A stretch of DNA of 62,945 nt from Folioceros fuciformis (taxonomy: Eukaryota): assembly GCA_049999805.1 (NCBI GenBank), contig JBNGIO010006337.1, positions 332,215-395,159 of the forward strand. Direction: 5' to 3'. Below the pieces are notes generated by a model. That model saw nothing but the letters and a program-made list of their open reading frames with translations, had not been told where the DNA came from and did no database searches. A program made the position numbers and the translations under genes. Shown piece after piece: positions 13,386 through 58,379 of this stretch. The stretch's first letter is position 1. Each line of letters starts with the position of its first letter.

Positions 13386-13527
13386 CAAGGATGTCAAATT
13401 GACTGTTACAGAGGGAGGGTGCGAAAGGTCGGAGGATGCATATGTCTGGTACGTGCTTCGTGAATGCTTGCCAGTCTCCTTCCTCCGAGGTAGTCCAGGC
13501 GATCACTAGCACGTGAACGCAGCTCAA

Positions 13528-23436: not shown

Positions 23437-26400
23437 ATGTCTGCCTCCTCTTCAATATCTGAATTAAAAGAAAAGGATAGATTTAATGGCACCCAATATC
23501 ACATTTGGCATGTCCGGATGAGGGCTGTCCTTGTAGCTAGGAAAGCGTGGACTGTGGTGGACGGGACCCATAAGGAGCCAACTGCAGCCGCCACAGGAAC
23601 TTCACTTTCAACTGCTCAACAAACCCTCCTGGACGAATGGACTTCAGACAACGACCTTGCTGTAGCACTCCTCATAAGTGGTTTGTATGTTGTTTTAATT
23701 CTAGATGTAGAAAATGTGCTCAAGGCTCATGAGATATGGGAGCAACTTGAGAGGACATAGCGAGTGCACAATAGGATGGCTCTTTGCGCTGCAAGGCAAG
23801 AGTTGTTTACCCTTAAGATGAAGGAGTCTGACAAGGTTGCAGTTTTTACGAGCAAGTTCAGACATTTACGCGCAGACACGGTATCTTTTGGTTCTACTAT
23901 GGATGAAGAGGATGCCATTGCGCAACTGCTGATTAGCCTTCCACCATCCTATCAAAATTTTGTGAGTATACAAAATGGTCCAATTCGCCCTACAGGTGCT
24001 GCGAACACATCCAACACTAGGACATTGGAGGATGTCATTGGGGCATTGTACCAGGAGGAGAAAGTCGGCAGCTTATGTCAGGTGGACATAAACACAAGAG
24101 TGAAAAGGTGATGGCTATGAAGTTCAAGCTGCACACAAACAAAGGGAAGACTCAAGGATCAGGTCAGCGTGCTAGTGACTCTGGATTTTCTTCCACTAAG
24201 AGGACAAGCAACTGTAATTGGTGTGGGATAGCTGGGCATTGGGCCCGTGACTGCCGCAAGAAGAAGGCAGGCAAGCCGCAGCGCCAGCACAAACCTACTT
24301 CCAGCATGGCAGTGAAAGACAAGTCTGGAGGTGACCACGATAAATCTACTGTGAGGATTTATATTGTTTGCCTGTCTTGCTCCACGAGGGATAGTATTAG
24401 TTGGTATCTGGACTCTGGAGCAACTACACATATTTGTATGGACGAGGACTAGTTTTCACATCTGCATCTGCTCAAAGTACCTAAGAAAGTGCTGTTGGGA
24501 GATGAGAGGACTGAGATTGGGTTGTAGATTAGAGGGCACGGGAGGTGTACCTTATCCTGCCGGACAATACAGAGCTTACTCTTGACGGGGTGCTGTATGT
24601 CCTGAGGATGGCGAAGAATTTGATGTCACTTAGCAGACTATTGAAGTCGCACGCTCTTCTTATGCAAGCTGATCAAGTGTCTTGTTCCTTTAGCAAGGCA
24701 GATTCACCTGGTATATGTGCCTTCGAAGGGGTGCTAGTCAACAACTTGTACAAGCTGAACATCAACTACAAGCGTGCTCATATAGTATGTTCTACAGGGA
24801 GTACCCACATGGACCAGAAGAAGCTGGCTGCTTTGTGGCATGCTCGCCTAGGACAAAACAACCGAGCAAAGCTGGTGGACATGTCCAACAAGGAATGTTT
24901 TTGAGAACCCCTGCCCAAGTGCTTCAAAGACCTTACAGTCTGCGAAGCATGCATTCTTGCCAAGAAGAAGGAGGCTCCTTTCCCTAATGCACCTGCACAT
25001 AAGGCATCACAAGTATTGGAGCTTGTCCATGCGGATATATCTGGGAAGATACAGGAGGCTTCACTTGGCGGATCTCGTTACTACTTTTGCTTGACCGACG
25101 ACTATAGTAGGTACTGGACCTTTCCTATGCAGTTGAAGAGTGATACATTCACTTGTTTCCAGGAATGGTTGCCTATTGCCCAGAGATAGTCAGGTCAACT
25201 TCTTAGAATGTTGTGCACGGACAATGGAACGGAATTTGTCAACGCAGCCTTCAACGAGTACTTGGCACAACATGGCATTCAACGCCAGCTGAGTGTACTC
25301 TATACTCAACAACAGAACGGAGTTGCCGAGCGCAAGAACCAAACCCTGCTAGGTATGACGAGGAGTATGCTACTTTGGGCAGGTCTTCCTCAAGGGTATT
25401 GGGCAGAGGCCGTAGTTGCTGCGGCGTACATCCTCAATCGGGTGCTCACCAGCGCTGTACATGGAAGGACACCATATGAGGTATTTTGGAAGCGTAAGCC
25501 TAGCCTACTTCATCTTCGAGTTTTTGGAGCAAAGGCATTCGCTTATATCCCTTCCGAAAAGAGTAGGAAGCTTGACATGAGATCTAAGGGCCTTGTTTTC
25601 GTCGGATACAACGAGACTGCCAAGGCATACAAGCTTTATGATCCGGTTACTCACTCTCTAACCTTAGCTCGTAGTGTCACTTTCATTGAACCTAGCTATG
25701 CTCATGGTGAACTGGCCACGTCAGTAGAGGGAGCAGCTCCATTAGCTTATTATGATGATGAGCAGGATACTAATCAGGTACCTGCGTATCCGCAGGATAC
25801 TAATCAGGTACCTATGTATCCACAAGATGATGAGCTACCAAATAACCCTCCGCCTATTTTAGATGCACAGGATGTCCAGCCTGCCTATGCACCCGTAGAT
25901 GAGCTGGCACATGAACACCTGAATGCACCAACTGTGGACAACAACCCTGCACATCACCGTGAACCTTTCATAGAAGATGCAAATCCTTACCCTCTTCAGG
26001 ATGACCATGAACCTGTTTTAGAGCCAAATGTCATGCCGCCACAAGTTGTAGAAGTTCCACCAGAGCCCGAGTTGCGCAGATCCACCCGCCATAGACTGCC
26101 TAGAGCCGAGTGGATCGAGCCCCCCTATGAGTCTATAGATTTCCGCAACACTTCCACATCACTTGCTGCTGTCATCCCTGATGAGCCAATCAACTTGAAG
26201 CAAGCCTTGTCAGGCCCTGATGGTGACAAGTGGCGTACATCAGTTGAGGATGAGTATCAGTCCTTGATCAAGAATAATAGATGGAAGTTAGTGGATTTGC
26301 CACTTGGCAGGAAACCCATCTCGTGCAAGTGGGTTTTCAAGCACAAACTCAACTCCAAGGGAGAGATTGCACGTTACAAATCCAGACTCGTGGCTAGGGG

Positions 26401-27765
26401 CTTCACGCAGGTTGAAGGCCTAGATTACCAAGAGACTTTCAGCCCCGTAGTCAGATCTCAATCAATCAGGATGCTACTTGCTATGGCTACGGAACATGAT
26501 ATGTATCTGCATCAAATGGATGTATGCACAGCTTATTTGTACAGCAAGCTTGAGGAGGAACTCTACATGCAACAACCTCAAGGGTATATTGATCCTAAAT
26601 ACCCCAACAAAGTTTTAGTTCTTCTGAAGTGTATTTATGACCTCAAGCAATCTGGTAGAGTATGGTACTTTACCATGCATGTTTTTTTATTGGAGATTAA
26701 CTTTGTACAAAGCTCTGCTGATTCCAATATATATATGCTTACCCAAGGCTCCACATATGTCATTTTGGCTTTATACGTTGATGACGTAATATTGGCTACA
26801 AATGATAAGACCCTATTGGAACATGTCAAGTCGCTTTTATCTAACAAATTTGAAATGAAGGATATTGGTGAATTGAAGTTTTGTCTAGGGATACAGATAG
26901 TGAGAGCTGATGGGGTGATGGCCATACATCAAAACAAATACATCAAGGAGATTTTGACCAAGTTTCATACGGATGAGGCACGACCCACTACTACCCCAGC
27001 TGCTGTGGGCGTGAAGCTTACTAGCCTTCAATGTGCTCAGACCCAGAGGAGCAGCTGGATATGCAGGATGTACCCTATAGACATGCAGTAGGGAGCCTTA
27101 TTTTTGTGGCAAACTGGACCCGACCTAACATCCAATATGTAGTTAGTACAATGTCGCAGTTCTTAGAACACCATGGTAGGGCTCATTGGGTTGCCGTCAA
27201 GCGTATCTTCAGATACTTAAAAGGCACAATGACACATGGGCTCATATACAAGCGTAGTGGCAAAGCTAAGCTCATCCTACAAGGTTTCACAGATGCCGAC
27301 TGGGCGTCTGATGTTGACTCCTGTTGCAACCTCTCCACATATTGTTTTCTTCTTGCAGGAGCTGCTATTAATTGGAGTTGCAAGAAACAACCCTCTATAT
27401 CTTTATCTTCAATAGAGGCAAAATATAAATCTCTCACTGAGGCCACCAAGGAGGCTGAATGGGAGAGAAGATTCTTGTAGGACTTGGGGCAGATACAATA
27501 GGATCCTACTCCTATCCTATGCGACAACATGTCAACCCTTGCCTTGGTCGCTAACCCTCGATTCTATGCACGCACCAAGCATATAGAGATATCCCATCAT
27601 TACATCAGGGATGCCGTGGATAGAGGGGTAACGAAGGTTAGTAATGTTGGAACAGATGACAATGTGGCCGACATTCTAACCAAAGCACTTTCTAAGCCAA
27701 AACACTATAAGCATATGGATGGCTTAGGGCTGGGTGATTACTCAGCTTATGTGAACGACACATAG
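23437..27765 (+). pseudogene. Copia gag-pol with stops and frameshifts
   Basis: CNWCGIAGHWARDC zinc knuckle; WYLDSGATTH protease; LWHARLG; TDNGTEF and QNGVAERKN integrase; YKSRLVARGFTQ, LYVDD RT; FTDADWA, RTKHIEI RNase H. In-frame stops at 23758, 24902, 25187 and 27478, plus frameshifts. Confidence 0.93.
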
Positions 27766-36659: not shown

Positions 36660-37040
36660 ATGATATACCTTGGCACACTCCTTCTTATAATTATAATATA
36701 CCTTGGCACACTTCTTCCTATACCTATGGTATATCTTTGCACACTTCCTAAAATTATGATATATCTTTGCACACATGTGAATAAGCGGGTATGGTACCCC
36801 TACCAAGTACCCACTCACATGTATCATGGCCACATCAATTGCACACCTGTGGACAAGCGGTATGGTACCCCTACCATACCATAGGTACATGCTCACATGT
36901 ATCATGGCCACATCAATTGCACACTTGTGGACAAGCAGNNNNNNNNNNTATCATGGCCACATCAATTGCACACTTGTGGACAAGCAGGTATGGTACCCCT
37001 ACCAGGTACCCGCTCACATGTATCATGGCCACATCAATTT
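36660..37040. repeat. Tandem repeats (~30-bp units, then ~70-bp GTATCATGGCCACATCAATTGCACAC.TGTGGACAAGC.. units)
   Basis: Visible repeated units, with a small N gap. Confidence 0.85.
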
Positions 37041-37089: not shown

Positions 37090-37362
37090 CATAACTTTTG
37101 TAACAAGTATGAGAAAATTCAATAATTGTGTTTTGTAATAACTTTTGTAACAATGAGAAAATTCAATAATTGTGTTTTGCAATAACTTTTGTAAAAGTAT
37201 GAAANNNNNNNNNNNNNNNNNNNNNNNNNNNNNNNNNNNNNNNNNNNNNNNNNNNNNNNNNNNNNNNNNNNNNNNNNNNNNNNNNNNNNNNNNNNNNNNN
37301 NNNNTTGTGTTTTGCAATAACTTTTGTAACAAGTATGGAAAAATTCAATAATTGTGTTTTGC
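37090..37362. repeat. AT-rich ~45-bp tandem repeat spanning a gap
   Basis: ATAACTTTTGTAACAAGTATGAGAAAATTCAATAATTGTGTTTTG repeated. Confidence 0.9.
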
Positions 37363-38213
37363 ACGTGCTTGGGAATATTTGAATAAGTCCCAACACCTTC
37401 AAATGTGCCATTAGTGATTTGGCCTAGAAGTAGGCTTTCTTCACAATTGCCTCTGGGGGCACTTGCTTGCTATTCATGGAGGCCTTACCCCCAACAATCT
37501 TCCTCGGTAGCTAAGACCTCTTTGCTCCAAATCTAGCCTCTCGATTTTTAGAGAGGCTAGATTAAAATTCTCTAAAATTCTCCTCTTTTAGAGGCTTTTA
37601 TGGAGGTGTAAACTAGGGGAGTATTCGGGGTAATATTTAGTTTACAAGTGTCTTCGAGGCAAGTAAGCGATTGCTTATTTTCTGGAGGCTCAGAAGACCA
37701 TACCTCCTTTTTTATCCTTTAGAAACGAGATCTAAGGTCTTTCGGCTTCTCTTTTAGAGAAGCAATATTCACAAGCACAAAGGGCTAGGCTTCTTCCAGA
37801 GTCATCCGTCAATATCCCCAAGTCCTCTTCCACTTGTATCCACTCTTGTTCGCCAAAGGAAGCTAGCTCATGGCTCTTAGTGTGCTAAGGCCTTGCATTT
37901 AGTTGTTTCGAATTGCACAAGTGACTTATATAAGTCACTTGCATGATTACAGTCATATATTTGTGACTACAATGAGACTATGCCTAAGTATGGGGTGTAG
38001 TGAAATTTTGTGTCTAGGGACATAAGGAGGTCCACATTCACCCTCTGTGTTGTTATAGTCCTAGGAGTCGATCTAAAGGGAATGGTTTGTGTCAAGTTGC
38101 TCTAATTCTATGACTTCTAGACTCTCTACAATCAGTTCCTATCCGAACGTACTCAACCGCCGTGCCCAAGTCCACTATCGTCATTCCTAGCTCTGCCATT
38201 GTAGTGAGTTCCC

Positions 38214-38601
38214 CCTTGGGACACATAGTCCCTCTCACATGGCACACAAACCTCTCCTTGGGACACACATCTCCCTCATAGGCCACACAGACCTCTCCTT
38301 GGGACACACATTCCCCACATAGGCCACACAAACCTCTCCTTCGGACACACTGTCCCCTCATAGGCCACACAAACCTCTCCTTCGGACACACAGTCCCCCT
38401 CACATGCCAAACACACCTCTCCTTGGGACACACAATCCCCTCATAAGCCACACAGACCTCTCCTTGGGACACACAATCCCCTCATAGGCTACACAGACCT
38501 CTCCTTGGGACACACAGTCCCCTCATAGGCCACACACACCTCTCCTTGGGACACACAGCCCCCTCATAGGCCACACACACCTCTCCTTGGGACACACAGT
38601 C
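38214..38601. repeat. ~41-bp minisatellite, ~9-10 copies
   Basis: ACCTCTCCTTGGGACACACAGTCCCCTCATAGGCCACACA-type units. Confidence 0.92.
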
Positions 38602-40199
38602 TAATAAGGGAGACACAACAAGGTCTCTTATACATGTGACCTCGAAGCACCATTACTTCCATAGCCTTTCAGAGTCTTAAGAAAGGGTGCCACTTCTACC
38701 CCCTGGATAGGCTGAAGAACCGCTTGTTTTACCCGACAATTGAGTTGATAATTCAGTCATCCTTCTTTGGAGGGCGATATTTTTGCCCTCCCTAGCCGCA
38801 ACCTATCCGAAGGACCAAGCTAGCCCCTCCACTACATTGGTTATGATCCCAGGCTACTTGCGTGGCTCCTACTGCGGTCGCTCTGGTGTAAAACCGGTAA
38901 TTAGGAGCTAAGGGGGTCCTCCCAAAAGATGCCCAAATGGCCCTCCTCATGGCCTCTGGGTTTGTGATCCCCTATTTGATAAGGTCCTCCAAGACTATTG
39001 ATCGCAGCAAAGTCTTTCGCCGGTCAATTTCCTCTTGGGCGGGTCATGGGGCAAGAGCCGAAATCACTTCGGCGGGTGGCGAACTAGAAGAGTGAGGACT
39101 CCAACCCTTCTTTCTCCCATGCGGAGAAGGGGGTCGTTGCTACAGCCAGCTATCGTAGCGAGCCAGCAAGCTGAAGAGCAGTTTAACGAGAAGGACTGGA
39201 CACCTGATCAGCATCCAGATGAGGTTGTTGGCATATGAGTAATGGCCGCAGCAGATTACGCATAGGGCATGCCTAGGACATAGAACATGGTTTGCGCCTA
39301 ACGGTCCTATTCCGCCAAATCGGGCTTTCGGGTGATTTTCTTCGTTTTTTTCGTGGCACATATCCATGATTCATGCTATTTGATGTGGAAGATCCCGAAA
39401 TAAACTGAACAATATTCATGACGCACTTCGTATTCATCATGTTTACCAAGAAACTAGGCGAAATTGAGGGTTGGGAACAGTAAAATTCCTTGATATTATC
39501 CAGTTCCATGCTTGGACTGCCGCTCTCGGCNNNNNNNNNNNNNNNNNNNNNNNNNNNNNNNNNNNNNNNNNNNNNNNNNNNNNNNNNNNNNNNNNNNNNN
39601 NNNNNNNNNNNNNNNNNNNNNNNNNNNNNNAATTCCTTGATATTATCCAGTTCCATGCTTGGACTGCCGCTCTCGGCTGCAGCTAGACACGATGATAATT
39701 TCCGAAATCGGCATTACTAGAAGTTGAAAAATGTGAGGGATTTTTTGAATATCAATCACTTACACATGTGTGCTGGTTTGCTAGCGCACGTATGTGGTGA
39801 GTGCGCTGGTCTACCGGCACACACATTGCTTCAATGTGCCGGTAGACCGGTGCACTCCTTGAGGAAGTGCGCTGATCAGTTGGTGAATGCCCACATAGGG
39901 TCTGGGGAAAGTGCAACACAACCATTCGTAAGGGTGCACTGATAGGCCGGCGCACACATAGACTGAGTGCACCGATCTATTTGCGCACCCCCACAAGATC
40001 TGCGTTGGCTGATTAGAGCACTACTAGAAGAGGCATTCATGGCACTAGCAAACTGAGGGATGCACTTATGAATAGCCAACCACAGCTCTCTGCAAACAGT
40101 GTTCATATACAGGGTGTGTGGTATACATGAAAGTACTTTACCAGTATAGTCTAAGTATCTGCTAGTTGGTCATTGACTTCCTATGGAGGATCTTGATCT

Positions 40200-40720
40200 C
40201 GTTTAAGCACATAGAAGTTCTTTCTAAGAAGGTTTCGAGTGCGAGCATGCAGCTGTTTTTTACGAGTCAACTCAAATCTATACGCTAAAATAAAAGTGTT
40301 CGCGATAGAAAGTGTGTCAATATGCTTCCGAAGTCTTCTGCTTGGCCGTCGCTTTCATCCTCGTCTAGAACCCTTGGGAGGATCTTCATTTGGCAATATC
40401 ATCTCCTCTTAATACCGATCTTCAAATGCATTTGAACATTTGGTGACCCACGAATGGATTATGATACTTTGAATGTCATTGTCCTTATGTGTGTCCAACA
40501 CTTTGGCGATCCAAAAAGGCCTATTGTCTTCGTCTGTCTCGCATGGGACTGCAATCATGTGCCCTACTTCTATCTCTGATACATCTCCATTTAAGCTATC
40601 ATGGTCGTTGCGAACATGAGCCTCTCTTCTATCCGCACCCACATACATGTGTCTTCTAGGAACTTCTCATATCCGTGGGTTTTCCACCACCAATGCATCT
40701 GGCACGTGTAACGGTGTATT
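40200..40720 (-). pseudogene. C-terminal fragment of a probable transposon-encoded protein
   Basis: Protein-like EIEVGHMIAVPCETDEDNRPFWIAKVLD..IIIHSW, continuing after disruption into HIDTLSIANTFILAYRFELTRKKQLHARTR. It lies inside the TIRs and points away from the MTase gene. No DDE core is retained. Confidence 0.45.
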
Positions 40721-40889
40721 CAACAACTCTGTCACATTGCGATTATACATGCCAGCAGAGTTGAGCACAAAGTAGAGTCTGTGAGTCTACATAATCGCGA
40801 TGTCTAATAAGCTATGTGATATAGAATGCATATAGAATGATATATGTATCTGCATATATGGAATGCAGCTATGTAGAAGCTATATATCT

Positions 40890-42624
40890 CTGGGACAAAG
40901 AAACATGCAAAAGCCAAGAGAAAACTTGGGGAAGCTGGACTCACTTCCAGTAATGCGCAAATGTTAGATGAGTCATCGAAGAAGGTTGCAGCAATGCAGG
41001 GAAGGCCTTGGAGGGCTTTTCAAGGAGTCCCAGCAGGGGTTACAGGCGAGGAAATGCTAATAGTTGTGACGCAAAAGGTCATCCAGGGCAAGGTGCTCCT
41101 AAAAGATATGGACCCAAAGGTAGGGAAGAAGAAAAAGATACATTTGATACAACATGCTTTCAGGATGGCTTTGAAGTGTGCAACATTTGAGGAAGCGGAA
41201 GTCTTGTATCCCAAGCACACGGAAGACTCACATCTGCTCTAGTTCCAAACTGCCTTTACAAAAGTGGTACACTTGCTTTTTCAAAGCCTTTAGATGTTTT
41301 TGAGCATACTAGTTGGATTGTGCCAATCTACCGGTGCACTCCAGCTGATTTCTTTGGAATGTGCTATCTTTCGGCGCATTCTGGAAAAATGGCCAGAGTG
41401 CCCCGGTAGACCGGCGCACTCTACCTGGAAACTCCGGCCATTTTTCCGTAATGTGTTATACATTACGGAGGGGGTGCGCCGGTAGACCAGCGTAGCCCAG
41501 CTCCTGTGTCCATAATACGCGGTTTTTTGGCGCTTTCCGTGAAAATGGCCGGAGTGTGCCAATCCACCGACGCACTTGGGCCAACTTGAAGGACTTCTGT
41601 GTAGATTGGGGAGGGTGTGCGCTAGTCTACCGGCACACTCTAGTCATTAGAAGTGATTTTTTACTTACTTAGGCTGGAGTAACGTAGTTCATGATTTGTG
41701 ATTCTGCTTTTTGTGTGGTTTTTCTTAACGAAATGCTTTTTGGTAGAAAGCAGTGGACATCACATACCTTGAAGCATTGCCAAAGCCTTTTCAAGATTAT
41801 GTTTACTCTGCTAGAAATTGGAAGCGCATGGAAGAAGAAAAGCAGAGACTCACAGATGCAGATATGGATGCAGGATTATCGGAGTTCAGAGTCCCAAACA
41901 GTAACAATAAGACAAAGCATTAAGTTATCCATCGAAACGTTTTGGAGATGGAAGCATTTATGGTAAAACGATTGTATACTCTCTGATTCGCAAATTTGCC
42001 TCGCGGACTGCAACGACATGAATACGATAGCTGACAAGCGAAGAGCTAGAGGACATGATTCGAGGGTTTTTAGAATGCACCAACAATAATGTGTATGGGT
42101 TGGTTCTCATGCATGGCGTGGATCTGATTACACAGGCTAGGGAAGCACATCAGCCATGGTGAAAGAAGGGAACCATTCAAACCTTAGTGTGGGAGAAGAC
42201 TAACATACCTCCCAATGCAAGCACAATAGAGATTGTCGAGTATTTAGCTGTTGGAAGTGTAGTTCACTCTGAAGCTCAGAACACAAAAGCTCCATTATTC
42301 GCGAATCAGGGATTCCTTCTTCCGCGAGTTACAAGGCATGGTGCTGTGTCGAAGAACCATCTATTCCACTCGGCAGATTCTCTAGTCATCTTGCTGTATC
42401 AAAAGCCCCTTAGTTTAATGGGTATGTTGGTGAATATGTTCTCCACTTAAGGGGACTGGGTAGTGGATGCTTGTGCAGGATCTGGGACATTTCTACAGTC
42501 TGCGATTCAAAGAGGAAGACATGTTGTCGCAGTGGATTTCGATATAAGATGTACCACTTACATCATGCAACGGGTGAATGGCATAGGCTCTTTACCAGAC
42601 TCCGATGAGGAGATCAGCACATAG
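40890..42624 (+). pseudogene. Beta-class N4-cytosine/N6-adenine DNA methyltransferase (N6_N4_Mtase-like) with N-terminal extension and one intron (41267..41746); disabled
   Basis: Motifs in beta order: VIHRNVLEM..YTL*FANLPRG..EYD (41924-42028; cf. IIHGD.LE..DLIFADPPYG..WD), TLVWEK (42181-42198), VEYLAV (42235), YQKPLSLMGMLVNMFST*GDWVVDACAGSGTFLQSAIQRGRHVVAVDFD..YIMQRV (42397-42576; cf. QKP..L..LI...S..GD.VLDPF.GSGTT..AA...GR..IG.E). Stops at 41240, 41921, 41984, ~42160 and 42448; frameshift at ~42030. Confidence 0.82.
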
Positions 42625-43349
42625 CATTTCTCGCACGGGCCCACAAAGTTTTGGGCCAAAGAAGTCTGCACGGATGGTAGCGTGGATCGTTGGATGCAGG
42701 TATTCACTTTGTTGGGAAAAAAAGGAGAGATTCTTGCACAATCGGACGACAGACCAGCGGAAGATCTTTATGCTATAACTATATGGGATGAGAATGGAAC
42801 AATTCCGCCTTAGACTGTGGACAACCTGCATTTCTATGTTCTAAATGTGCAGGGGGACAACTTCGGAGACATAGAGGGCCAACGACTTAAAGACATAGAT
42901 GTTGTTGTCGATTCCGAGGCCAATCAAGACGTTCGTGTTTTTATTTAAAGGTGTTGTTGAGAGTAGTGGAAGTGGATAGTATATTATGATTATAAACATA
43001 TTTGACTATGTCGTTTTTCAATCCATGGGATGCAGATAGACACCTCCCTGTCCTTTAAACATAGACTTTAGTGTGCCGGTAGAGCGGCGCACCGAAAGTA
43101 AGATTCTTTTTTTTCTTAAAGTTTTAGAGTGTGAAGACCACATGTACCACTTGGTTGTGGGCTTGAAGCAAATGTGTGGAGATCGATTATGTCCACCACA
43201 CGTCAATATAATTGGTTTTTGAAAAAGAGGCTAAAATGTAGATATGTGACTAGGATGGTGTAAACTCAAATGTGCACCAAATGGGCTTCGTGGAATACGA
43301 CCGTTAGGCACAGACCATGTTATAGCCGCTAGAGCTGGAAGAAGGAAAC

Positions 43350-46050
43350 AAGGTTAGTATTAGAGGTTAGACTGAGCAGGATTAAGCTAACCCCAATTAG
43401 TTGCTAACCAATCTAGTAGTTCAGTTAGCTTAGGTAAAGAAGTGGTCGGTGTTGAGTTATCGAGCTCTATATGAGCTAAACTCATGTGGTGTTAGTTATC
43501 CCAGTTGGGTTCATACTAGACTAGTTCTAGTTATTAGTGAACTTAGGATAGTGTAGAATTATCCCATATTGAACCTGGAAGTTGTGTAGCCCTAAATGTA
43601 CTACTCAAATGGAGACCTCGGACCTCCATAGTAAGACAGTGGTGATGTGTATTGTTTTCATGGTTGTGATCACCAATACCACCCTCTCTTCTCTCCTCTC
43701 CTCTCCTACACTTGCACGTAGATTGGAGTCGATCCTATTGACAGTCGGAATTGGGACGTGGGGGGTACAAGAACTAAGTGCTCCTCTCATCAAACCGGCT
43801 CAATTCCTGGACGGGGGCCTCCTCACTTTTGGTAGTTGGACCCCTAAGTTTGAGAGATGTCTGGGCACATCTCTGCTTACATCTGGTATTAGAGCTGGTC
43901 GATCATGCAGGAGACATGACTCCAAAAAATCGCCAAATATTTGATTGGATTTGTGCCTGATGGTACGAAAGCTCATGACGGACGGTCCAGGAGGAGGAGT
44001 GATCACGGGAGTGGGAGCGTCGTCATTCAGGATAGATGGGAAGTGCGCACGTAAGGTGCAAGGAAAAAGAAGGTGAGAAGCAAAGCAGCTTTCGTGGAGA
44101 AAGAAGGATGAAGAATGTCGAGCTTAATGGAGCAATGATGTTTGACCTAGCAAACGCTCCCATCTTGGTGCAAAAAATGTGTGCTAGCTGCGAATGAGAA
44201 AGTGCAAGCGTGCCAAGGCTAGAGGATTTGAGCTCAAGGAGATCCGTCACCTTGTAGTCATGAGGTCTTGGACCCAACGATGGCAAAGGTCACATCGAGT
44301 GCTGGTAGGAGAAGAGATAGTTGGGTCCGGCATCCGAAAGTAGGTGCATGCATGAGAGCAGGGGCCTGCAATTTTCCAACGAAGGGATAAGTTGCATATT
44401 TGAGCTTGGATTACGTGCGTACACAAGGTCAATGGACGATAGCAGTGTTTCTTCACGGCTCCACCAACGAGCGAGATCCATAGCCGACATGGCCCCAGCT
44501 CTACATGTCGAACTTGCAGTCCGACAAAGTGTGAAGTTGCGAGGTGGACCGGTAGCTAGAGGGGGCGTTAAGAAGAAAATTTCCCATCCTCGCAAATCCC
44601 TCGTTGGGCTTGCACTAGCAATGGGAAGGCAGCTCGTTAGAAACGAGGCCAAGCTGCAAGGAAAGAAGTAGTTGAGGAGGAGGATATTGTGCTTGATCCC
44701 GTGCATATGCCCACGCATGGAGCAATAGAGGCTGAGCCTGCTACGAACTTGGATGTGAACCCCACGTGGGCTCAACACGAGAAGTAGAATTTAGATCCCG
44801 CGTTGAGTCCGAGGTTATGGCTATGATCCAGCGAATGCTACAAGCTCAACAAGAGAAGCACAAAAAATGCGGAGAGGGAGAAGGCCTTACGTGAGATGCT
44901 TCTTGGACATGCCGTTGGCTTAGTCCAAGAAGACTTCCATGTGCCAAGAGATGTGGTGAACGAAGGCGATGGTCCAAGCTTGTTTAAGTTCAAAGCACGT
45001 ATGGAAGCCAAAGCTCAAGCTATTCTACATCAATCATTGCAAGAACAAAAGGAACAGCATGAGAAGTTGGTAGCAAATTTGCTTGCACAAAATGAAGAGA
45101 AGGAGCAAAATTGGAGAAGCATTCTAGCACAAGTCATGCAAAAACCCGCTTTTGGACAAGATAGCATACTAGAGCCTGTTCATGCACAGAATGACAATAG
45201 AGATGGAAGGCTTGCTTCTGCAAACGAGTTGCCCACATTAATTGGGACTCCCATCATCAACACGATCCTGCCAACAACATTGAAAATTTTTCGAGTGCAA
45301 GGATTGGCGTTGGAAGAGGATCCCAAAATTGCTAAGATTGCTAGGCGTCTACAAATTGCAAGGCATGAGAGAGCTCAAGCCGAGGCAGTCACGGACCTTG
45401 CTTCTAGAGAAGGGATGTCGACGAAGGTCCGGATCTAACTTGAAATGATGATATGAGAAAGAGGGCTAAGTTCGAGGTGCTAACATGCCAAGATAGGAGC
45501 CCGAGTAAGTTGCAGGAGTGGATGCAAGCATTCACCACATATTTTGAAGGTGGACTTTGCAGCCCATTACACAAGCCATCTAGCCAGAGGTTGGTGGGAG
45601 AACAGGAAGGAGGCTGGGAAGCGTGGAGAGAAGCTGCCCATACAACCATGGGAGGTGATGAAAGCCGAGCTTCTTCACAACTTCTTGCCCAAGGATCACA
45701 AAGAAAGGTTTTGGTCAGCGTGGTATGCTCTCAAGCATACAGGAACACTTGAAGAATTTCATTTGCAATTCATGAAAGCTATGCTCAAAATACTAGATCT
45801 AGAGGAGGAGGCAAAGCTCGCCAAGTACTGCGATGCCATCAAGCAAGAGTATAAGCTCAGCATTAAGCAACAATGCTGCACCACTATTGAAGAGGCAATT
45901 CAAGCTGAAATGGATGTCGAGAACTACAAAGTCAGGCTAGTTGGATCTGCAATTGTGACAACCCGGCAATTCGGGCAAAGCCAAGGACAATAATGTGTGT
46001 TTCACAAACCATAACAAGCTCAAGGAGCCAAGTACAACCCCTTTCACTCT
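43350..46050 (+). mobile_element. Degenerate Ty3/Gypsy element: LTR end, PBS and gag
   Basis: LTR-like segment ending ..CTTACA (43881); PBS TGGTATTAGAGC at 43884-43895; retrotrans_gag-like KVDFAAHY..ARGWW..PWEVMKAELLHNFLP..LKHTGTLEEF..F (45544-45993). No pol seen; left boundary uncertain. Confidence 0.75.
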
Positions 46051-46129: not shown

Positions 46130-47690
46130 ATCTCGAAGGCTTGGCATAGCTCCCACTTAACCTAGCGCATCAAGGTAAAGGAATTGCTGATTATCCGTAG
46201 GTCATCAACGTATACAGCGATCCATACTTGTGAGTCCCCGACTCCGAGCGTGTATACTTCATGATTTGCCTCGCTCCGTTTCTCGTACATGGAGGAGAAC
46301 ATACCATTCCCCTCCAAGTGATCGGGTCTTCATGGGTCCACATAAGTCGCTGTGCACCAAGTCCAAGTGGTGCTCCGCTTACACTCGAGCAAATCCTCCC
46401 TATGTGAAGGGAGCCTTGTGGTGCTTCCCCAGCACACACCCTTCACAAAACTTCAACTCACTGTCCCCCTGGAGCGTGAGCCCATGGACCATTGTGCGAT
46501 TCGCTAACAATCACATGTCACGGTCTCCTAGGTTCCAAAATCTCTCATGCCACAGTCGGATTGATTCGTTTGCAACCTCGATTTCGGCTATGTTGGCCCT
46601 CTCTCTTGCACGCTGCTCCTCGCTCTTGCTTCCGGTCTCAAGAATGTTGCAAGAAAGTCGGTATAGGTTGTCATCCCCAAGGGTGGGTTTGGCAACCGTA
46701 TCACCATGCGGGTTCTTGATATGCAGCTTGACCTCTTGAATGCCACTTCCAAGCCTATAGCTGTGAGCCTGGACCCTTCCTTGGGAGCTGTGAGATCTGC
46801 TGCCTTTTTTTGATAGTCTCAAACCCTATATCCGACCTTGTCACAGTAGAAACACTTGAATGTGGATGGACTCGATCGCGAGGCTTTGGTCCTCCCATCG
46901 CCTCGTGTTTTGCCTCTACTCATGGAGTTCCCATGAGCGATGAACACTGAGTCTTCTCCGTCAGCTTGCTCCTTCCCTTTCTACTTGCGTCGAGCTGCCT
47001 CCTGCACCAGTCTTGACCAAACGAGTTCTGTGGGCAGTGTGTTGCCTCATGACTCTAATGCGTGTAGGGTTATTAAAGCCCAATGTGCTTAGACTAATGT
47101 GATTAGTCTAATTAAACTAGTGTGATAAGTTTAATTAGACTAATGTAATTAGTCTAATATTAGTGTTTAATTAAGTATCATTAGCTTAAGCTAATCTTTA
47201 GGAAGCTTCCTGCATAGCTTGCTGCTTCCTGCATAGCTTGCTTCCTGTGAGCTTCTTGTGAAGCTTCATTGGGAGCTTTTCTAGGGGGTATTTTAGAGCT
47301 GTGAGAGACATTGTGAGACCTCTCTTTCTCCTCTCCTCTCCTCCTCCCTTCTCTCTTCTCCTTCACCATGCTCCTCAAATGATCCTTTCAATGCGACCAT
47401 CAATGTCTCGTAAGAGGGTGGGAGGCTGACCAGAAGTAAGATGATGAGGACTTTCTCCTTGAAGTTGGCTCCGACAGCTTCTAGCTGCTCATTTTGGGTA
47501 TCCACCTTCGCTAAGTGTTCTTCCATGCTATCTTCTTCCCCCATTCGCAGTGTGACTAGTCGCTTGACTAGGAATACCTCACTCACGGGACTGCCCACCT
47601 CGTACCGCTCCCTCAATCGTTCCCAAACGTCCTTAGAAGTTGAGTGTCTCGAAAGTTCTCGTAACAAATGCTTTGTGATCCCACTATTTC
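46130..47690 (-). mobile_element. Fragmented Copia relic (gag, zinc knuckle, GAG-pre-integrase/integrase start) with a ~300-bp LTR-like insertion at ~47063-47367
   Basis: SKDVWERLRERY..LRMGEEDSMEEHL..LLVSLPPSYETL; CFYCDKVG; LWHERF; CEGCVLGKHHKAPF..LVHSDLCGPMKTRSLGG. Confidence 0.8.
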
Positions 47691-48976
47691 CATTTCGGCC
47701 TTTGTAGATTTCCATTCCATTATAGAGAACGGAGCTCACAATACATTCAAAGTGAAGGATGCTATGAGGCCAAGCAGAAAAAAAAGAGCAGTGATCAAAG
47801 AGTACATAACGGTCAAAAAGGAGACCGACACGGAGTAACAATGGGAAAGGTACAGCCCAACGAGGTGTGTCTTTGCACCCCTTAAATACGGAGCATGGTG
47901 CGCACTGCCCTGCAAATCCTGGAAGTACATCAATATGTGGTATCTTCCATAAACTTCATCTGGTGAATTGCGCCGTGATTGAGAACGTCAGCTGCAGCTG
48001 GAAAATCTCCTCCAACACCCCACACCAGTTGCTGTCTTGAGAGCAGGTACTGCGCTGAGTGAGCAATACACCGTGGGCATTTTTGGAAGGAGATGAGCAG
48101 CTACAAGTTGAAAGAAAAGTAGAACCTGCCACTAGCCTGCAGGGGCGCATCACAACCGAATGCTGAAAAGATCATGCAAAATTAAGCGAGCCCTGTAGAG
48201 CAGCCGTGGGGAATTCTAAGCGGCTGAGCCCCAAGTTGCAAGGAGCCCTAGATTGCTCCCAGCTGGCTAGATTGCGTGAGTAATCTAGCCAGCTGTGAGT
48301 CTGCTCTCGGAATGACGGCAGGTGATGAAAACCGTGTTGTGGATTGTATATCCCTGGGACGGGATGACTTTGTGTGATCGGAGGGATTGTGGCACACTGA
48401 AAATATTGCAGAAACGCAAAAGTATGCATCTGGATTGGTTGCGTTCAATCCAGATGCCATCTGGACGCGCGGCTATGGTGGTATACACTGAAAGATTTTC
48501 GCCGCTCGGTTTGGATACGGTGCTACATGTTCATAACATGAGGACCGTTGTGCCCTGGTAGCAAGCTCAGTGCACAATGTGTGGACTCGGCAAAGAATGA
48601 TCCTCCTCTAACACTGACCGTGACAATGTGTCACCTACAAAAGAATGCATGCATGCATGGGTGCAACTTTTACTGAACTCAGCAATCTTGGGCGGTAGCG
48701 CTACCACTCGCCGCAGGTTGTGCACACACGAGCTCGCAATCGCTGCAATGCCCAAGATTGCTGCGCCATACACGCACGTGAGGCAGGTAGGAGAGACGAT
48801 TAAAAGCTGGACGGACGCTGTTGCAGCAACGATATTGCATACATGGACGCACTGCAGCAGACGTGTGGGAGACCCTGATCCGGAGTTGGCCACACCATTG
48901 TTCCCCATTGCTGCGTCAAGCTACGCTGGCGGTCCTCACCTGCATGTAGCGGCACACGGATCATGGATGCAAATGA

Positions 48977-52467: not shown

Positions 52468-55400
52468 TCAAGAACTTGGTTGGGTGTCGAGCCCCAGACC
52501 CTTGCAGTGAGCAATGTGCCTATCTTTTGGGAGTGACTTAGTGAGTAGGTCTGCCACGTTTTGCTCTGTGGGTACGTAGACTAGGTCAATTTCTCCGGAG
52601 GTCACTGTCTGCCTGATATAGTGCTGTTTGATGGCTATGTGCCTAGTCCGAGAGTGGTGCACTGGATTCCTGGACAAGGCTATGGCTGACTAGTTGTCGC
52701 AGTACACAGTCGTGGCTCCGGGTTGAGGAAAACCCACAGAAGCCATGAACAGGCGATTGTAGACAGTTTCTTGAGCGGCTGCAATGGTGGCCGTGTATTC
52801 TGCCTCGGTGCTAGAGAGTGCGACCACAGTCTGCTTCTTTGAAGTCCAGCTGACTGCTCCGCCAGAGAGGATTGTACAATTGGCAGTGATTGAGTCTTCA
52901 TCACTTGCCCAATCAGAGTCAGAGTAGCAGATGAGTAGTGGAAACTTTCCTTGTGATTTGTATTTGAGTCCAAGATGCTGCGTTCCCTTCAGATAGCGTA
53001 GGGCTCTCTTAACTCCTGTCCAGTGTGCAATGCCGGGGTCAGCAAGAAACCTAGAGAAGACTCGTGCAGCCGGAGCTACATCAGGCCTTGTCCATCCGCT
53101 GATCCAGATAAGGCATCCCGTTAGCATACTGTAGGGTTTCTTTGCCATTTCCATCTTTTCTGCTTCTGTCTTTGGACTCTGGTCTGTGGAGAACTTCTCT
53201 CCCACAGCCATGAGAGTGATAGCTGGCTTGCAGTCTGTCATAGTGAATCTTTCTAGCATTTGCCTTACGTAATGTGGTTGGTGGCAGAATATACTGCTCT
53301 TGTCTGGACTGATGACAATCTGTATGCCTAGGAAGAAAGTGAGCTGTCCCAAATCCGTCATGGAAAATTCAGCAGTGAGAATGGACTTAACTTTCTTCAT
53401 GATGTCAGGGGAATTGGCAAATATCAGTGCATCATCGACGTACAGTGCTAAAATGGCAAACATCTGCCCTTGCCTCAGGATGTAGACGTTTGTGTCAGCA
53501 TCGCTCTGACTGAATCCGGATTTGACCAGGTAAGCATGAATCTTTTGGTACCAGATCCTTGGAGCTTGTTTTAAGCCGTACAGGCTCTTTCTCAACTTGC
53601 ATACCTTGTGTGGTTCTGACTTGCTGACATAACCCTCAGGCTGGGTGATGTACATCTCCTCGTCTATTTCACCATGCAGGAAAGCGGTCTTGACGTCCAT
53701 TTGGTGAATATCCAGTTTGCATTCAGCAGCCAAGGCAAAGAGCATCCTTACAGAAGAGGCTCGTACAACAGGTGAGAATGTTTCATGGAAGTCCAGTCCC
53801 TCGACCTGCTTGTATCCATGAACAACGTATCTTGCCTTGTATCTGGCCACTGACCCATCGGGGTTTAACTTTTTCTTGAACACCCACTTTCCCGTGAGTG
53901 GTTTGCGTCCTGGAGGCAGGTCTACCAGCTCCCAAGTCTGGTTATCGATGAGAGACTGGTATTCAGAGTCTATGCCTACCTTCCAGAGCTTGCCTTCTGG
54001 GGAGGACAGTGCCTCCTTCAGTGTAGTAGGTTCTCCAAGGTCCTGAGCTGCTATCAGGGCGCGTGCAACATAATTATGAGGTATGTGCAAGTCCTGAACT
54101 CCAGGAGCATCTGAGCTGGCTGCAAAGTTTGCATGCAGTCTTCGGTGCTCTTCATCCAATTCATAGCTCAGTGGTTTGTGTGTCCACTAGCTTGGATCTG
54201 TGGTGTGGCTCCTGGCAGATCTTCTGAGCTCCTGTGGTGCCTGAACCACTTCTTTAGCGACCTCTGAGTGAAGCTGCTCCTGGTTCTCCTCAGTTTCTAG
54301 TGGAGGAGAATGTGGGGGACTATCGTTAGTCACATTGTCATGTTCCTCATACTGAGGCTTGTCAACCTGGTCGCTTGTCTCCGAGGTTGAGTCATCTGCA
54401 GTGAGGTCAGGTTCATCTTCTGGAAAGGCAAAAGCAGGCTGTTCGGCAGCAGTTGGTACTTGCTGAAAGGTAACCAGGTGCTCATCATGTGTTGAGGGTG
54501 CATCTTGTTCATCAGTTGTGAGACGTTCCAGGCCAGGTACGTCTCTGCTCTTTTCTGAGACTTGCAGGAGAAACTGCTCATCAAAGATGACATTTCTGGC
54601 ATGCAGGAAACGACGATTCAGGGGGTCATAAAGTTTGTAGCCTTTAATGCCCTCTGTATAACCGATGAACAGGTGTTTGGTTGCCTTAAAGTCCATCTTG
54701 CGTCTGACTTCATCAGGTGTATGGGCATATGCTGGACAGCCCCAGATCTGCAAGTGGTCCACTCGAGGCTTGACGCCAGTCCACCTCTCAAAGGGTGTAG
54801 CATTGGCAAAGGCACAAGTGGGTAGCCGGTTTTGAATGTAAACTGTTGTGGCAACAGCTTCTGCCCAGAAGCACCGAGGAAGTCTGGCGAGATGCAGCAT
54901 AGACTTGGCAGCAGCCTGTGTGACCTTGTTTTTGTTCTCAAGCAAAGGGTTTTGCTCATGCTCATAGGGAACGGTAAGTTGCCGAAGAATACCCTCCCGT
55001 GAGCAAAAGTCCGTGAATTCTCCTGAGGTAAACTCGCCTCCGTTGTCACTTCGCAAGCATTTCAGTTTCTGACCTATAAAGCGTTGAGCATACAAGAGGT
55101 ACAGTAGAAAGCAAGAGAAGGCTTCACTTTTGTGCTTGAGAAAGTAAGTGACTGTAAACCGACTCCAGTCATCAATGAGATGCATGAAGTAGAGAGCACC
55201 ACTAAGGGAACGTGTGGACATAGGACCACAGAGGTCAGTGTGCACAGTTTGAAGTAGCTGAGTAGCTCTCGTTGCATCTTGACTGGGATGTGGAGCCTTA
55301 TGGTGCTTCCCTTGTATGTAGGCTTCACAAAAGATGGAGTTCTCAGACTTGAAGTGAAGAGGTGTCCTGTACAAGGATGAAGCAGGCAGAGTCCGGAGAC

Positions 55401-57321
55401 GTTGGAGGTGCACATGTCCCAGTCGGCAGTGCCACAGTTGTGTCTCATTAGGAGAACTGGTGGCTGTTGCATGAGCAGCTGGTGCCTTCAGCTGCTGGAT
55501 GGGGTTGCTCTTCAAGTTGAGCTGATATAGGTCATTCTTGAGAGTGCATGTGACCAATAACTGGTGCGGTGCAGCAGCCTCCCGCAGTGCAAGACCATCA
55601 GTTGTCATCTCCAAGGTAAGCAGTGGAGGAGACAGGCGTCTTAACGAGACTAGATTTTTAGCCATCTGTGGGACAAAGATGACGTCTAACAAAGTGATGG
55701 TTTTGCCTTGTGCAAGGTGAAGGACAACTGTGCCAGTGCCCTCGATGCATAGACCACTGTCATCACCTAAAAGTACAAAATGTCCCTTAGGAGAAGACGT
55801 GAAAGTGGTAAAGGCTGTGCGAGTGTTACAGACATGCGTGGTGGCACCTGAGTCTAAATACCAGGCATGCCTGTCTTGAGAAGAGGAGACCATACACACT
55901 GTGAGGATGGCCCCTGTACTTTTCTTTGAAGATACATGAGCAGATGGAGGAGCTTCTCGCTTGGGTTCACCATTCTGCTTCTTACGGCATTCAGATTCCA
56001 CATGCCCTGGGATCCTGCACCATGTGCAAGGGCCTCGTTTGGCATTACTGGACTTGGAGGCTGACCATGTAGGGCGAGGAGAGCCTGGTTTATAAGGTGG
56101 GCGGTTGCCACCTTGAGCACGCCGTCCTCGTCCTTGAGAGACGAACATGGCTCGTGCAGGATTGCTGGAGGAGGATCCTCGACCACGAGTGTGAGTACCC
56201 TCCTTGTTGAGCAAAGCACCAATGATATCTGAGAGTGAGATTGGAGATTGTGTGCCAGCAGCTACTGCTGCTTGAGCTGTCTGTATGTGTTGATTCTGAG
56301 TGCTCACAAAGCTGTTGTATTTTTCTGGTAGTGACATAAGGAGGGCCACTGCAGCTTGGAGTTCATCAACAGCAGTGCCAGCCGTCATTAATTTGGTACG
56401 TAACATCCTGAAGCGGCTGACATGATTCTCAACAGTATCTCCATCTCGCATTCTCAGATTATAGAAGGCACGTGTGGCATGAACAAGTGTTGTGACACTT
56501 TTCTTCTGGTACACTTGACAGAGTGAATCCCAGATTGCCTTCGAACTGTCTGCCTCCCGGGCATGAGACATCATGCTTAAATCCAGAGCAGAATGGATCA
56601 CGTTTTGGGCGCGAAGATCCTTGAGTTTCCAGGCATGCTGGTCTGCTCGGCTTGCAGCAGTTGCACCTGTAGCAGGTGTTGCTGGCATTGGAGTTGCTCC
56701 AGTAACGTACTCCCAGAGTTCGAGCTCTTGAAGAATGGTACGTACTCGAATCATCCATATGTCAAAGTGTTGGCCACTAAATCTATCTTTGTCTTTAAAG
56801 TCATACTTAAAGTTGTTGACTGTGACATTTGCAGGAGGATTAGTGCCCATGACTGTATATTGACTGAATTGCGTTTGACTTAGATCAAACAGTTGATCAA
56901 GGTGGAATGAGGAAGAATGACTAGAGGCAGGTGAATTATGTGAGGACCTTGGTGTGGAGGCCGAGCTATCAGAAGAGGGAGGCTGAGAGAAAATGACACC
57001 AGACGCTAGCGTGCCAAGAGTACTTACTGAACTTAATGCAGGATCTGGAAGGGTGTACTCGTCTGAGTAGTCAAAGGGATTTTCTGGAAGGACAGGTGTC
57101 TGTTCAAACCCAGAGATTGGTGATTCTTCAGATACCCCCTCAAATCCAGAAGTTGGCAGTGTTTCAGGTGCTTCTTCAGATTCGACCCTTTCTGGTGACG
57201 TTCCAGATCTTGGGCTTGAAGGTGACCCTTCAGAGCTCGATCTTGGACGCGACGTTCCGAGTCTAGCAGGAATCCGGCGCGGTGGCCTCCCGGCTGGGCT
57301 TGGATCCCAAGGTTCCGACAT
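52468..57321 (-). pseudogene. Copia gag-pol in a single frame with two in-frame TAG stops (54187, 52690)
   Basis: CTWCRIPGHVESEC; WYLDSGATTH; LWHCRLGH; VHTDLCGP, RSDNGGEF; YKARYV, HQMDVKTAFL, LYVDD; YSDSDWA, STEAEY, DN*SAI, RTRHIAIK. Confidence 0.95.
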
Positions 57322-57913
57322 ATTCAACCACCATCTTCCTTGATTTCTCCTCAAGTGTCATCTGTGTCAAGAATGTAGCCACCTCAGAGATGACGTCGTT
57401 CTTGGGTCTTCCACCAGGTAGGACGCAAGGAGGCCCTGAGGGGAGATTTGGCACAGTTTGATGCAGGTTGATAAGCGTTATTCTTTCTGGCTCAGTTTCC
57501 AGTGGCTGAGAACTTTGCTGCTTGATCACTCCTTCCAGGTGCGTAACCTTTGTGAACAACGTATTCAGATCATGAGACAGGTGTTTATATCTGTAGTTGA
57601 TGTTGTCAACTTTGTCACGGAGGCGCTCCTCCTGGACTTCGCGCATTCGCCGAAAATCACACAATGTTGCATGCGTGTGACGGCGCTCCTCAGCGAGGAA
57701 GTGGTGGAGAGTCTTCAACGCCGGCTCTAGCAGGTCAGGTGTAGTTTCAGACGCGCTCGTAGATGGATGCAGGTGTGCACTTCTTCCGCAATTACTGCAA
57801 GAGCTCTCAGCTGGGTAGGTGAAGGGTGGCGGACGTGCACTCCACCGTGTGACGTCCGCTACGCTGGCTCTATGTGGATTGAAGGTGCGCCTTGAGCGGC
57901 CATTGCGAGGCAT
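57263..57913 (-). CDS. Extra 216-aa ORF upstream of gag inside Copia element 2 (coiled-coil-like, function unknown)
   Basis: ATG-initiated ORF between the PBS and gag; heptad-like VQEERLRDKVDNINYRYKHLSHDLNTLFTKVTHLEGVIK; overlaps the start of the gag frame. Confidence 0.5.
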   Translation of the reverse strand: MPRNGRSRRTFNPHRASVADVTRWSARPPPFTYPAESSCSNCGRSAHLHPSTSASETTPDLLEPALKTLHHFLAEERRHTHATLCDFRRMREVQEERLRDKVDNINYRYKHLSHDLNTLFTKVTHLEGVIKQQSSQPLETEPERITLINLHQTVPNLPSGPPCVLPGGRPKNDVISEVATFLTQMTLEEKSRKMVVEYVGTLGSKPSREATAPDSC

Positions 57914-58379
57914 TGCTTAGGATAGCAGCCCAGTCATTTACCTATCTAATGCAGGCTTGTGGACTGACTCCTGTGTGCAGGAATACCAGGTTATCATCAC
58001 CTGTTTCCTAGTGTATATGAGAACGCTAAGAAAGACGTGTATATGACCTGGTGTTCCTATGCAGGCTTCTTTCCTACAGCAGATTGAGTCTTACACACGC
58101 AGTGAACTAATTGCAGGCCATGCTAGAAGTGTACTTGGGACCATACTGTGCAGGACAGAAACCAAGATGACAATCTGGCAGATTAAAGATGCAAGTTCAG
58201 CAGGGTGGCTCAATGTTCCTTGGCGCCAGGTGCGCAAGTGCTACGCGTAGTAGTGATTGACAACCTCCGCCAAGAAGGTTGCAGCTCGAAAGTTTTCATG
58301 TGTCAGAGTCCTAATGCAGGACTCCGATTTACAGATCTCACACACACTAGGAGGCGACATGGCGGAGTCCATCAACCAA

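Follow-up and report, generated by a model that had tools for sequence, protein, structure and literature searches.

Do two reading frames that lie 480 nt apart in a plant transposon belong to a single methyltransferase (MTase) gene interrupted by a spliceosomal intron, and how long has such a gene resided in eukaryotes? The question is raised by a stretch of 62,945 nt from Folioceros fuciformis (GenBank assembly GCA_049999805.1, contig JBNGIO010006337.1, positions 332,215 to 395,159 of the forward strand), called the window below, in which the remnant of a beta-class amino-MTase gene lies within a terminal inverted repeat (TIR) element. An earlier interpretation of the letters alone, referred to here as the sequence-only reading, had suggested a spliced eukaryotic gene. 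Judging from its frames, its splice signals and its counterparts in related loci, the interval at 41267-41746 is very likely a genuine and old phase-0 GT-AG spliceosomal intron.

Two frames of one gene flank a candidate intron

The upstream frame (frame A, 40877-41266) ends in AFTKV (GCC TTT ACA AAA GTG, 41252-41266) directly before GTACAC at 41267; it contains a single in-frame TAG at 41240, its stop-to-stop extent being 40877-41242. The interval that follows counts 480 nt (160 x 3), opens with GT (41267-8), closes with AG (41745-6) and stands in phase 0. At 41747 the phase of frame A reopens as AAA GCA GTG GAC (KAVD), KAVDITYLEALPKPF, with a stop-to-stop extent of 41747-41923, and the frame reaches a remnant of MTase motif IV, NLPRG (41993-42007), passing stops at 41921 and 41984 on the way. 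Sequence and frame lists agree with the sequence-only reading that the upstream frame ends at a phase-0 GT at 41267, resumes in phase after the TAG that ends at 41746 and continues from there into the MTase.

The 3' end of the interval reads TTTTTGGTAG, stopping at 41746, a T-rich tract being followed by TAG at 41744-41746. T content reaches 41-47% in the intron flanks against 21-24% in the exons; the 3' flank (47% T) also carries CTTAAC at 41724-41729, 16-21 nt before the AG, which resembles the branch-point consensus. At the acceptor the window copy itself reads TAG|AAAGCA; the differences T41744C and G41750C in five contigs from X1, one of two DNA sequencing runs of the same organism (X1 and X2), give CAG|AAACCA (AAACCAGTGG) as the consensus acceptor and exon start of the window family.

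Homology spans both sides of the interval. Residues 350-477 of P0021, a 789-aa open reading frame (ORF) from a metagenome contig, align by tblastn with 40898-41266, ending on the last base before the GT (E 3e-6), and residues 21-103 of a further relative, P0003, align with 41768-42010. The spliced window product is colinear with P0021 and with two related loci, L007 and L008, from a PW motif through motif IV and across the junction, with alignment scores of 144, 105 and 65, respectively, against 117, 68 and 57 for the unspliced reading. In these three relatives the intron is absent and both segments are contiguous in one ORF, which identifies them as parts of one gene. That the two frames are separate genes, or chance open frames in decayed repeat DNA, would fit the stops that both contain and the absence of any Pfam match in either N-terminal piece of the window gene; the contiguous ORFs, the tblastn matches and the spliced alignment contradict it, and we regard it as extremely unlikely. 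Among the 15 joints listed, of 41 in all, for DNA contigs mapped on the element, none connects 41266 to 41747.

The window copy is a truncated pseudogene

Downstream of 42027 the gene continues in another frame, with VWEKTN at 42187, YQKP at 42397 and the motif I sequence DACAGSG at 42466. One X1 contig contains an additional CAGG after 42027 (depth 78 of 230), and by arithmetic four added bases bring 41747 and 42031 into one frame; we therefore place a 4-nt deletion in the window copy at 42027-42028 (+). With seven internal stops and this frameshift in total, the MTase copy of the window is a dead, 5'-truncated pseudogene.

Its remains divide into three parts, all on the plus strand. The exon A remnant (40898-41266), with the PW motif at 41003-41020 and the TAG at 41240, consists of helical linker. 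The first part of exon B (41747-42027), in the same frame, includes LPKPF at 41777 and the NLPRG motif, and the rest of the MTase domain (42031-42948) holds four internal stops and ends with TAA at 42946; exon B thus comprises the remaining linker and the MTase. Motif IV, the target-recognition region and motif I follow one another in that order, which is the beta-class order. With Pfam, the window piece scored 15.8 bits for PF01555 (N6_N4_Mtase), below the cut-off of 26.7. The canonical catalytic motif of amino-MTases is (D/N/S)PP(Y/F/W), which does not occur in the window, NLPRG standing in its place.

Distant relatives share the intron position

Using an alignment of 11 relatives to scan metagenome contigs, we obtained 55 related loci; in 18 of them a GT-AG intron falls at the homologous codon. 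In these loci the upstream exon ends in AF(K/R)(D/E)W or AFKK, corresponding to AFTKV in the window, and the donors read GTTAGT, GTATGT, GTAGGT or GTAAGC. The introns are short (81, 82, 83, 84, 86, 89, 91 and 93 nt) and AT-rich, with a GC fraction of 0.23-0.31 in the eight measured. A pyrimidine precedes the acceptor AG in 15 of the 18 loci, and the same 15 begin the next exon with AAACCA (K-P), the exceptions being L032, L033 and L038; in L035 and L042 the translation is broken at the same point.

Most of these intron lengths are not multiples of three, so only splicing keeps the frame. Removal of a 91-nt and an 89-nt intron from L001, for instance, yields a stop-free product of 249 aa that is colinear with P0021 and L007. 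Since codon, phase and exon start coincide between proteins of about 25-30% identity, a shared old intron is the only economical reading, which sustains the earlier proposal that the interruption is spliceosomal.

Further introns, after EMVTEFNK, ENLAW and FSGTG, occur in relatives but not in the window family. L007 and L008 are without the first two of these (EMVTEFNK and ENLAW) but have an intron of their own after motif IV. This pattern of gain and loss fits a gene with a long eukaryotic history. The long residence in eukaryotes claimed from the window sequence is thereby upheld by the shared intron and the lineage-specific introns, together with a gene model in Ginkgo biloba and hundreds of diverged copies. 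Likewise, the claim that the MTase is not bacterial contamination can be considered settled, the gene belonging to a eukaryotic, intron-bearing family. In the flanks of the relatives we found no transposase, the only neighbours being an SDR gene and a copia reverse transcriptase fragment.

Exon A encodes the linker of a predicted ParB-MTase protein

When the read-through MTase of the window (P0001) was searched exhaustively with HMMER, 107 proteins were recovered at E <= 0.001, the best at 34% identity; a word-indexed protein search with the same query returned no match. The relatives include the Ginkgo gene model (670 aa) and P0021. All nine relatives tested pass the PF01555 cut-off (30.0-65.7 bits). 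Ahead of the MTase they have 400-550 residues outside any family known to Pfam, and the N-terminal ORFs of the relatives gave no Pfam match either.

The AlphaFold model of P0021 (pLDDT 75) contains an alpha/beta-plus-helical domain at residues 80-320, predicted with confidence, then a helical linker (confident at 390-445, poor at 450-530) and the MTase at 535-780. In Foldseek searches the C-terminal domain of this model matched CcrM, M.BceJIV, MboIIA, M1.HpyAVI, RsrI and the rotifer enzyme N4CMT. For the N-terminal domain we used the model of another relative, L011 (pLDDT 71), which retrieved ParB, Noc, Spo0J, KorB, sulfiredoxin and PadC (best E 3e-4), ranks 1-10 being ParB or Noc chains throughout. 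VIA-align gave Z values of 7.6 for PadC, 6.3 for the pNOB8 ParB-N domain, 5.7 for Arabidopsis sulfiredoxin, 5.5 for KorB and 5.1 for human sulfiredoxin; the values are middling, yet all top matches share one fold. The profile of one alignment (A3) found only MTases among Protein Data Bank sequences, as two full-length rows included that domain, and pattern scans of genome and viral contigs returned no prokaryotic or viral relative of the ParB-like domain.

On these models, intact relatives are predicted to consist of a ParB/sulfiredoxin-fold N-terminus, a helical linker and a beta-class MTase of the N6-adenine/N4-cytosine type. The segment upstream of the intron is the linker of this ParB-linker-MTase protein. 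The sequence-only reading had described it as a helical N-terminal extension, which is real and conserved in the relatives, and had ascribed it to a eukaryotic fusion of the MTase with a separate helical domain, which does not hold: since phage ParB-methylases have the same layout, the architecture probably goes back to an ancestor in phages or prokaryotes and did not arise by assembly in eukaryotes. The ParB-type fold that it had proposed to look for by HHpred or Foldseek is predicted at the N-terminus of the relatives and is absent from the window copy, where tblastn of five ORF1 proteins against the window located no ParB part upstream of 40940.

Across the family, motif IV follows the pattern D-[ILFA]-P-[YHR]-G. 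Most relatives have DIPYG, DFPYG or DAPYG, Ginkgo and L032 have DIPHG, and the three nearest relatives of the window have DLPRG, to which NLPRG of the window corresponds. The aromatic residue has been replaced in a conserved manner in these nearest relatives, and not by random decay.

The window copy is dead cargo of a non-autonomous TIR transposon

To survey copies of the element, contig pieces of X1 and X2 were compared with 39200-43400 at a likeness of at least 80%, and 964 (X1) and 753 (X2) pieces matched. The element at 39284-43321 is of TIR type, present in high copy and about 4.04 kb long (a length that includes a run of N), with the target-site duplication (TSD) ATAG. A 21-nt repeat, AACATGGTYTGYGCCTAACGG, occurs in the window only at 39284-39304 and, inverted, at 43301-43321, none being expected by chance; these are the left TIR, AACATGGTTTGCGCCTAACGG (+), and the right TIR (-), which differ at two bases. 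ATAG stands at 39280-39283 and recurs behind the right end at 43322-43325. In one DNA contig 39283 is joined to 43329, the structure expected of an empty site, and nine X1 contig ends part from the window sequence immediately ahead of 39284.

Within the element, coverage is deepest (594-1158 in X1) over a conserved minus-strand frame at 40184-40765 with three stops and the motif RPFWIAKVL. This frame had no Pfam match and no homologue among the longer proteins or the loci of the relatives; in Atlas it retrieved weak eukaryotic hypothetical clusters only, with a best score of 0.92 and recognition below the usual level. Next to it lies a copy-specific AT-rich stretch (40751-40891), probably an internal deletion or rearrangement junction, where depth falls to 16 (X1) and 1.9 (X2). 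Three X1 contigs continue differently after 40748, and homology to the relatives begins only at 40898. The collapse of depth at 40748-40891, the late start of homology and the missing ParB part together suggest that the window copy is an internally deleted derivative. We conclude that the element is a non-autonomous TIR transposon and that its gene copy is dead cargo.

A run of 100 N at 39531-39630 lies between identical 47-nt stretches (39484-39530 and 39631-39677) and looks like an assembly gap artefact; similar runs occur at about 36939-36948 and 37210-37310. Just outside the element, a tandem array with a 41-nt period and seven or more overlapping copies occupies 38173-38625.

Element-specific palindromes fill the intron core

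The intron is composite. Its flanks (41267-41312 and 41646-41746) have a GC fraction of 0.33-0.35, and its core (41313-41645), at 0.54, is built from a 22-26-bp palindrome of the GAGTGCGCCGGT-AG-ACCGGCGCACTC type, also written as the GAGTGCGCCGGTAGACCGGCGCACTC type, which occurs five times with a start-to-start spacing of 63-80 nt. These five copies (41315-41639) form two long hairpins in RNA folding (z -9.07). A 22-nt palindrome consensus has seven matches at six sites, all within 39801-43092 and nowhere else in the 63 kb, with none expected by chance: the palindrome is placed in a left cluster (39768-39979), in the intron and in a right subterminal copy (43066-43092). The intron array escaped Tandem Repeats Finder, and the only Rfam matches, to mir-299 on one palindrome, stayed below threshold (28.7 bits, the gathering score being 67).

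The two flanks add up to roughly the length of an ordinary short intron. With a palindromic core between them, this points to an ancestral short intron enlarged by a palindrome array. Other copies cover the interval, at a summed contig depth of 153-177 against 337-466 for the exon bins (X1), so the array is a trait of the family and not a private insertion; the number of units varies between copies, as the joints 41361>41434 and 41492>41431 indicate.

Could the 480 nt instead be a secondary hairpin insertion, resembling a miniature inverted-repeat transposable element, in the master copy of the family, with GT and AG coincidental? A GC-rich, palindromic core folding into two long hairpins would suit such an insertion, as would the variable number of units. 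At the very same codon, distant relatives are interrupted by a short intron of unrelated sequence, with the same first exon bases AAACCA after it; no direct repeat surrounds the interval, although one had been named as the sign of an insertion with its own TSD; other copies cover both interval and acceptor; and the conserved K-P codons would be lost if the putative duplicate were taken out. We consider this explanation very unlikely. In a weaker form, in which the palindrome core was inserted into a pre-existing short intron, it is likely.

As a candidate TSD we also considered AAAGTGG / AAAGCAGTGG at the intron borders. It was rejected, AAACCA being ancestral exon sequence in the family consensus and in the relatives.

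Palindromes recur in one clade of relatives, in a different form. There, TCGATAY-N2-4-RTATCGA (AAyTCGATAC-N3-GTATCGArTT) lies in arrays that precede the gene by a few hundred bases. Of the eight loci of the clade whose upstream sequence extends to 300 nt or more, six have such copies: eight in L004, about 41 bp apart (676-1020), three each in L014, L017 and L019 (7-170, 34-175 and 120-360), two in L002 (1-60) and one in L011; a single copy in L010 falls outside this count. The period of the upstream arrays is 41 or 51 bp, and several contigs start within the array. Clustered palindromes linked to a ParB-type gene are thus found both in the window element and in this clade. By analogy with bacterial ParB systems, it is possible, and we propose it tentatively, that the palindromes are parS-like loading sites of the ParB-like part. 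By the same analogy, eukaryotic ParB-MTase genes and their lineage-specific arrays may conceivably form a co-evolving ParB/parS-like pair, the element-encoded protein loading on the DNA of its own element and marking it epigenetically or shielding it.

The distribution of the palindrome also bears on how the gene entered the element. A non-autonomous TIR element might have captured a fragment of a host ParB-MTase gene with exons and a real intron, in the manner of Pack-type elements. The copy begins mid-gene at about 40898 without the ParB part, the element lacks a recognizable transposase, and capture of gene fragments by plant TIR elements is well known for Pack-MULEs (PMC6431247). Set against this, the gene is tied to the element by the palindrome, which the window contains only in the intron and the two subterminal regions; the copy is truncated right at the copy-specific junction (40748-40891), beyond which other copies run on differently, making longer copies probable; and DNA transposons of red algae regularly carry methylase and ParB-like accessory genes, according to a preprint (10.1101/2025.02.11.637652). 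Capture by a Pack-type element is unlikely on balance.

A probable old intron, enlarged within a mobile ParB-MTase gene

Taken together, we consider it probable that the interval is an old intron of a ParB-linker-MTase gene, carried as a dead, truncated copy in the non-autonomous TIR element of about 4.04 kb and enlarged by palindromes. An ancestral short, U-rich intron would have been expanded in the window family by five element-specific palindrome copies, and in intact copies the pre-mRNA would be spliced at this intron. The ParB-like part may bind the palindromes as ParB binds parS, and the MTase part could then act on, or at least dock on, the DNA of the element itself.

Several observations weigh against this account. 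The donor of the window copy, GTG|GTACAC, is weak, and a copy riddled with stops cannot itself be a functional spliced gene. The relatives are metagenome contigs whose eukaryotic nature is deduced from their introns and neighbouring genes, and the model of the N-terminal domain has only moderate confidence (pLDDT 71). In amino-MTases, loss of the aromatic residue of motif IV makes catalysis doubtful, and catalysis in the clade of the window, which has DLPRG and not D-x-P-Y, would accordingly be doubtful on its sequence. Pfam and homologue searches of the frames of the element revealed no recognizable transposase, and without one the gene could be captured cargo. Finally, L003 and L013, which belong to the array-bearing clade, have no upstream palindromes, and no upstream arrays were seen in the L032-type or L007-type clades.

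The window as a whole is eukaryotic and plant-like, with copia-type retroelements, a neprosin fragment (8305-8727) and a papain-family protease. The protease ORF (13510-14556, +) encodes an uninterrupted 348 aa with an I29 propeptide and a C1 domain, and its best matches are land-plant cysteine proteases of the XCP or RD21 type at 43-50% identity. These contents mark the organism as a streptophyte, one that has no close sequenced relative among the proteins searched. Copia-type retroelements and gag fragments surround the element at 24021-27480 (+), 44827-45993 (+), 47293-47955 (-) and 52690-57916 (-). An open frame of 1669 aa at 1-5010 (+) runs off the start of the window and shows a strong purine skew and a weak leucine-zipper-like Pfam match.

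Comparison with known systems

The closest architectural parallel is found in phages and prophages, in which fusions of a ParB N-terminal domain with an N6_N4 DNA methylase are known (Pfam PF02195 and PF01555). Four phage proteins from BFVD align with the 789-aa model of P0021 over 654-715 columns, covering both domains at a high root-mean-square deviation of 15-29 A; one of them is named ParB/Sulfiredoxin and one is a Mycobacterium phage DNA methylase. The likeness lies in a ParB/Srx-fold N-terminus followed by a beta-class amino-MTase. Unlike the phage proteins, the family described here is eukaryotic; its genes have spliceosomal introns, its helical linker is longer and its motif IV reads D-[ILFA]-P-[YHR]-G. 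A ParB-methyltransferase of prokaryote or phage type has thus been resident in eukaryotes for long enough to carry introns common to deep lineages, and in a streptophyte the gene travels within a TIR transposon.

Among transposons, the nearest parallel comes from red algae. The Plavaka preprint describes EnSpm/CACTA elements whose accessory genes PAG2 and PAG3 comprise an N6-adenine methylase and a ParB-like gene, with inverted-repeat arrays beside the latter, and its authors propose that the ParB-like protein binds its own element (10.1101/2025.02.11.637652). As set out there, the methylase is joined to SET and the ParB to a 2-oxoglutarate (2OG) oxygenase, in two genes of elements measuring 17-19 kb. 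In the present case, ParB and MTase belong to one protein, the host is a streptophyte, the TIR is AACATGG..., the TSD has 4 bp and one array is intronic; these traits set the two systems apart. The recurring link between gene and palindrome array offers a testable model of a transposon that recognizes and modifies its own DNA, an idea that we found proposed only for the red-algal Plavaka elements (10.1101/2025.02.11.637652). If true, it would place a self-targeting chromatin module on a DNA transposon in the land-plant lineage.

N4CMT of bdelloid rotifers is likewise a bacterial-type beta-class amino-MTase in a eukaryotic genome (PMC8885841; structures 8s9m, 8s9n and 8s9o). It was among the Foldseek matches of the P0021 MTase domain with E 3.6e-10. 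N4CMT is reportedly a host gene with another partner domain, neither linked to ParB nor borne by a transposable element. Prokaryote-type DNA adenine methyltransferases (DAM) in eukaryotic transposable elements are known from DAM-carrying retrotransposons, in which a Dam-type MTase lies within the polyprotein (10.64898/2026.05.21.726589); in the window, by contrast, a DNA element of TIR type carries the MTase as a gene of its own, which has an intron and belongs to the N6_N4 (beta) class. We found no description in the literature of a plant DNA transposon carrying a fused ParB-MTase gene. Methyltransferases borne by transposable elements and ParB-methylase fusions are kinds already known; what is unusual here is an intron packed with the palindromes of the element itself.

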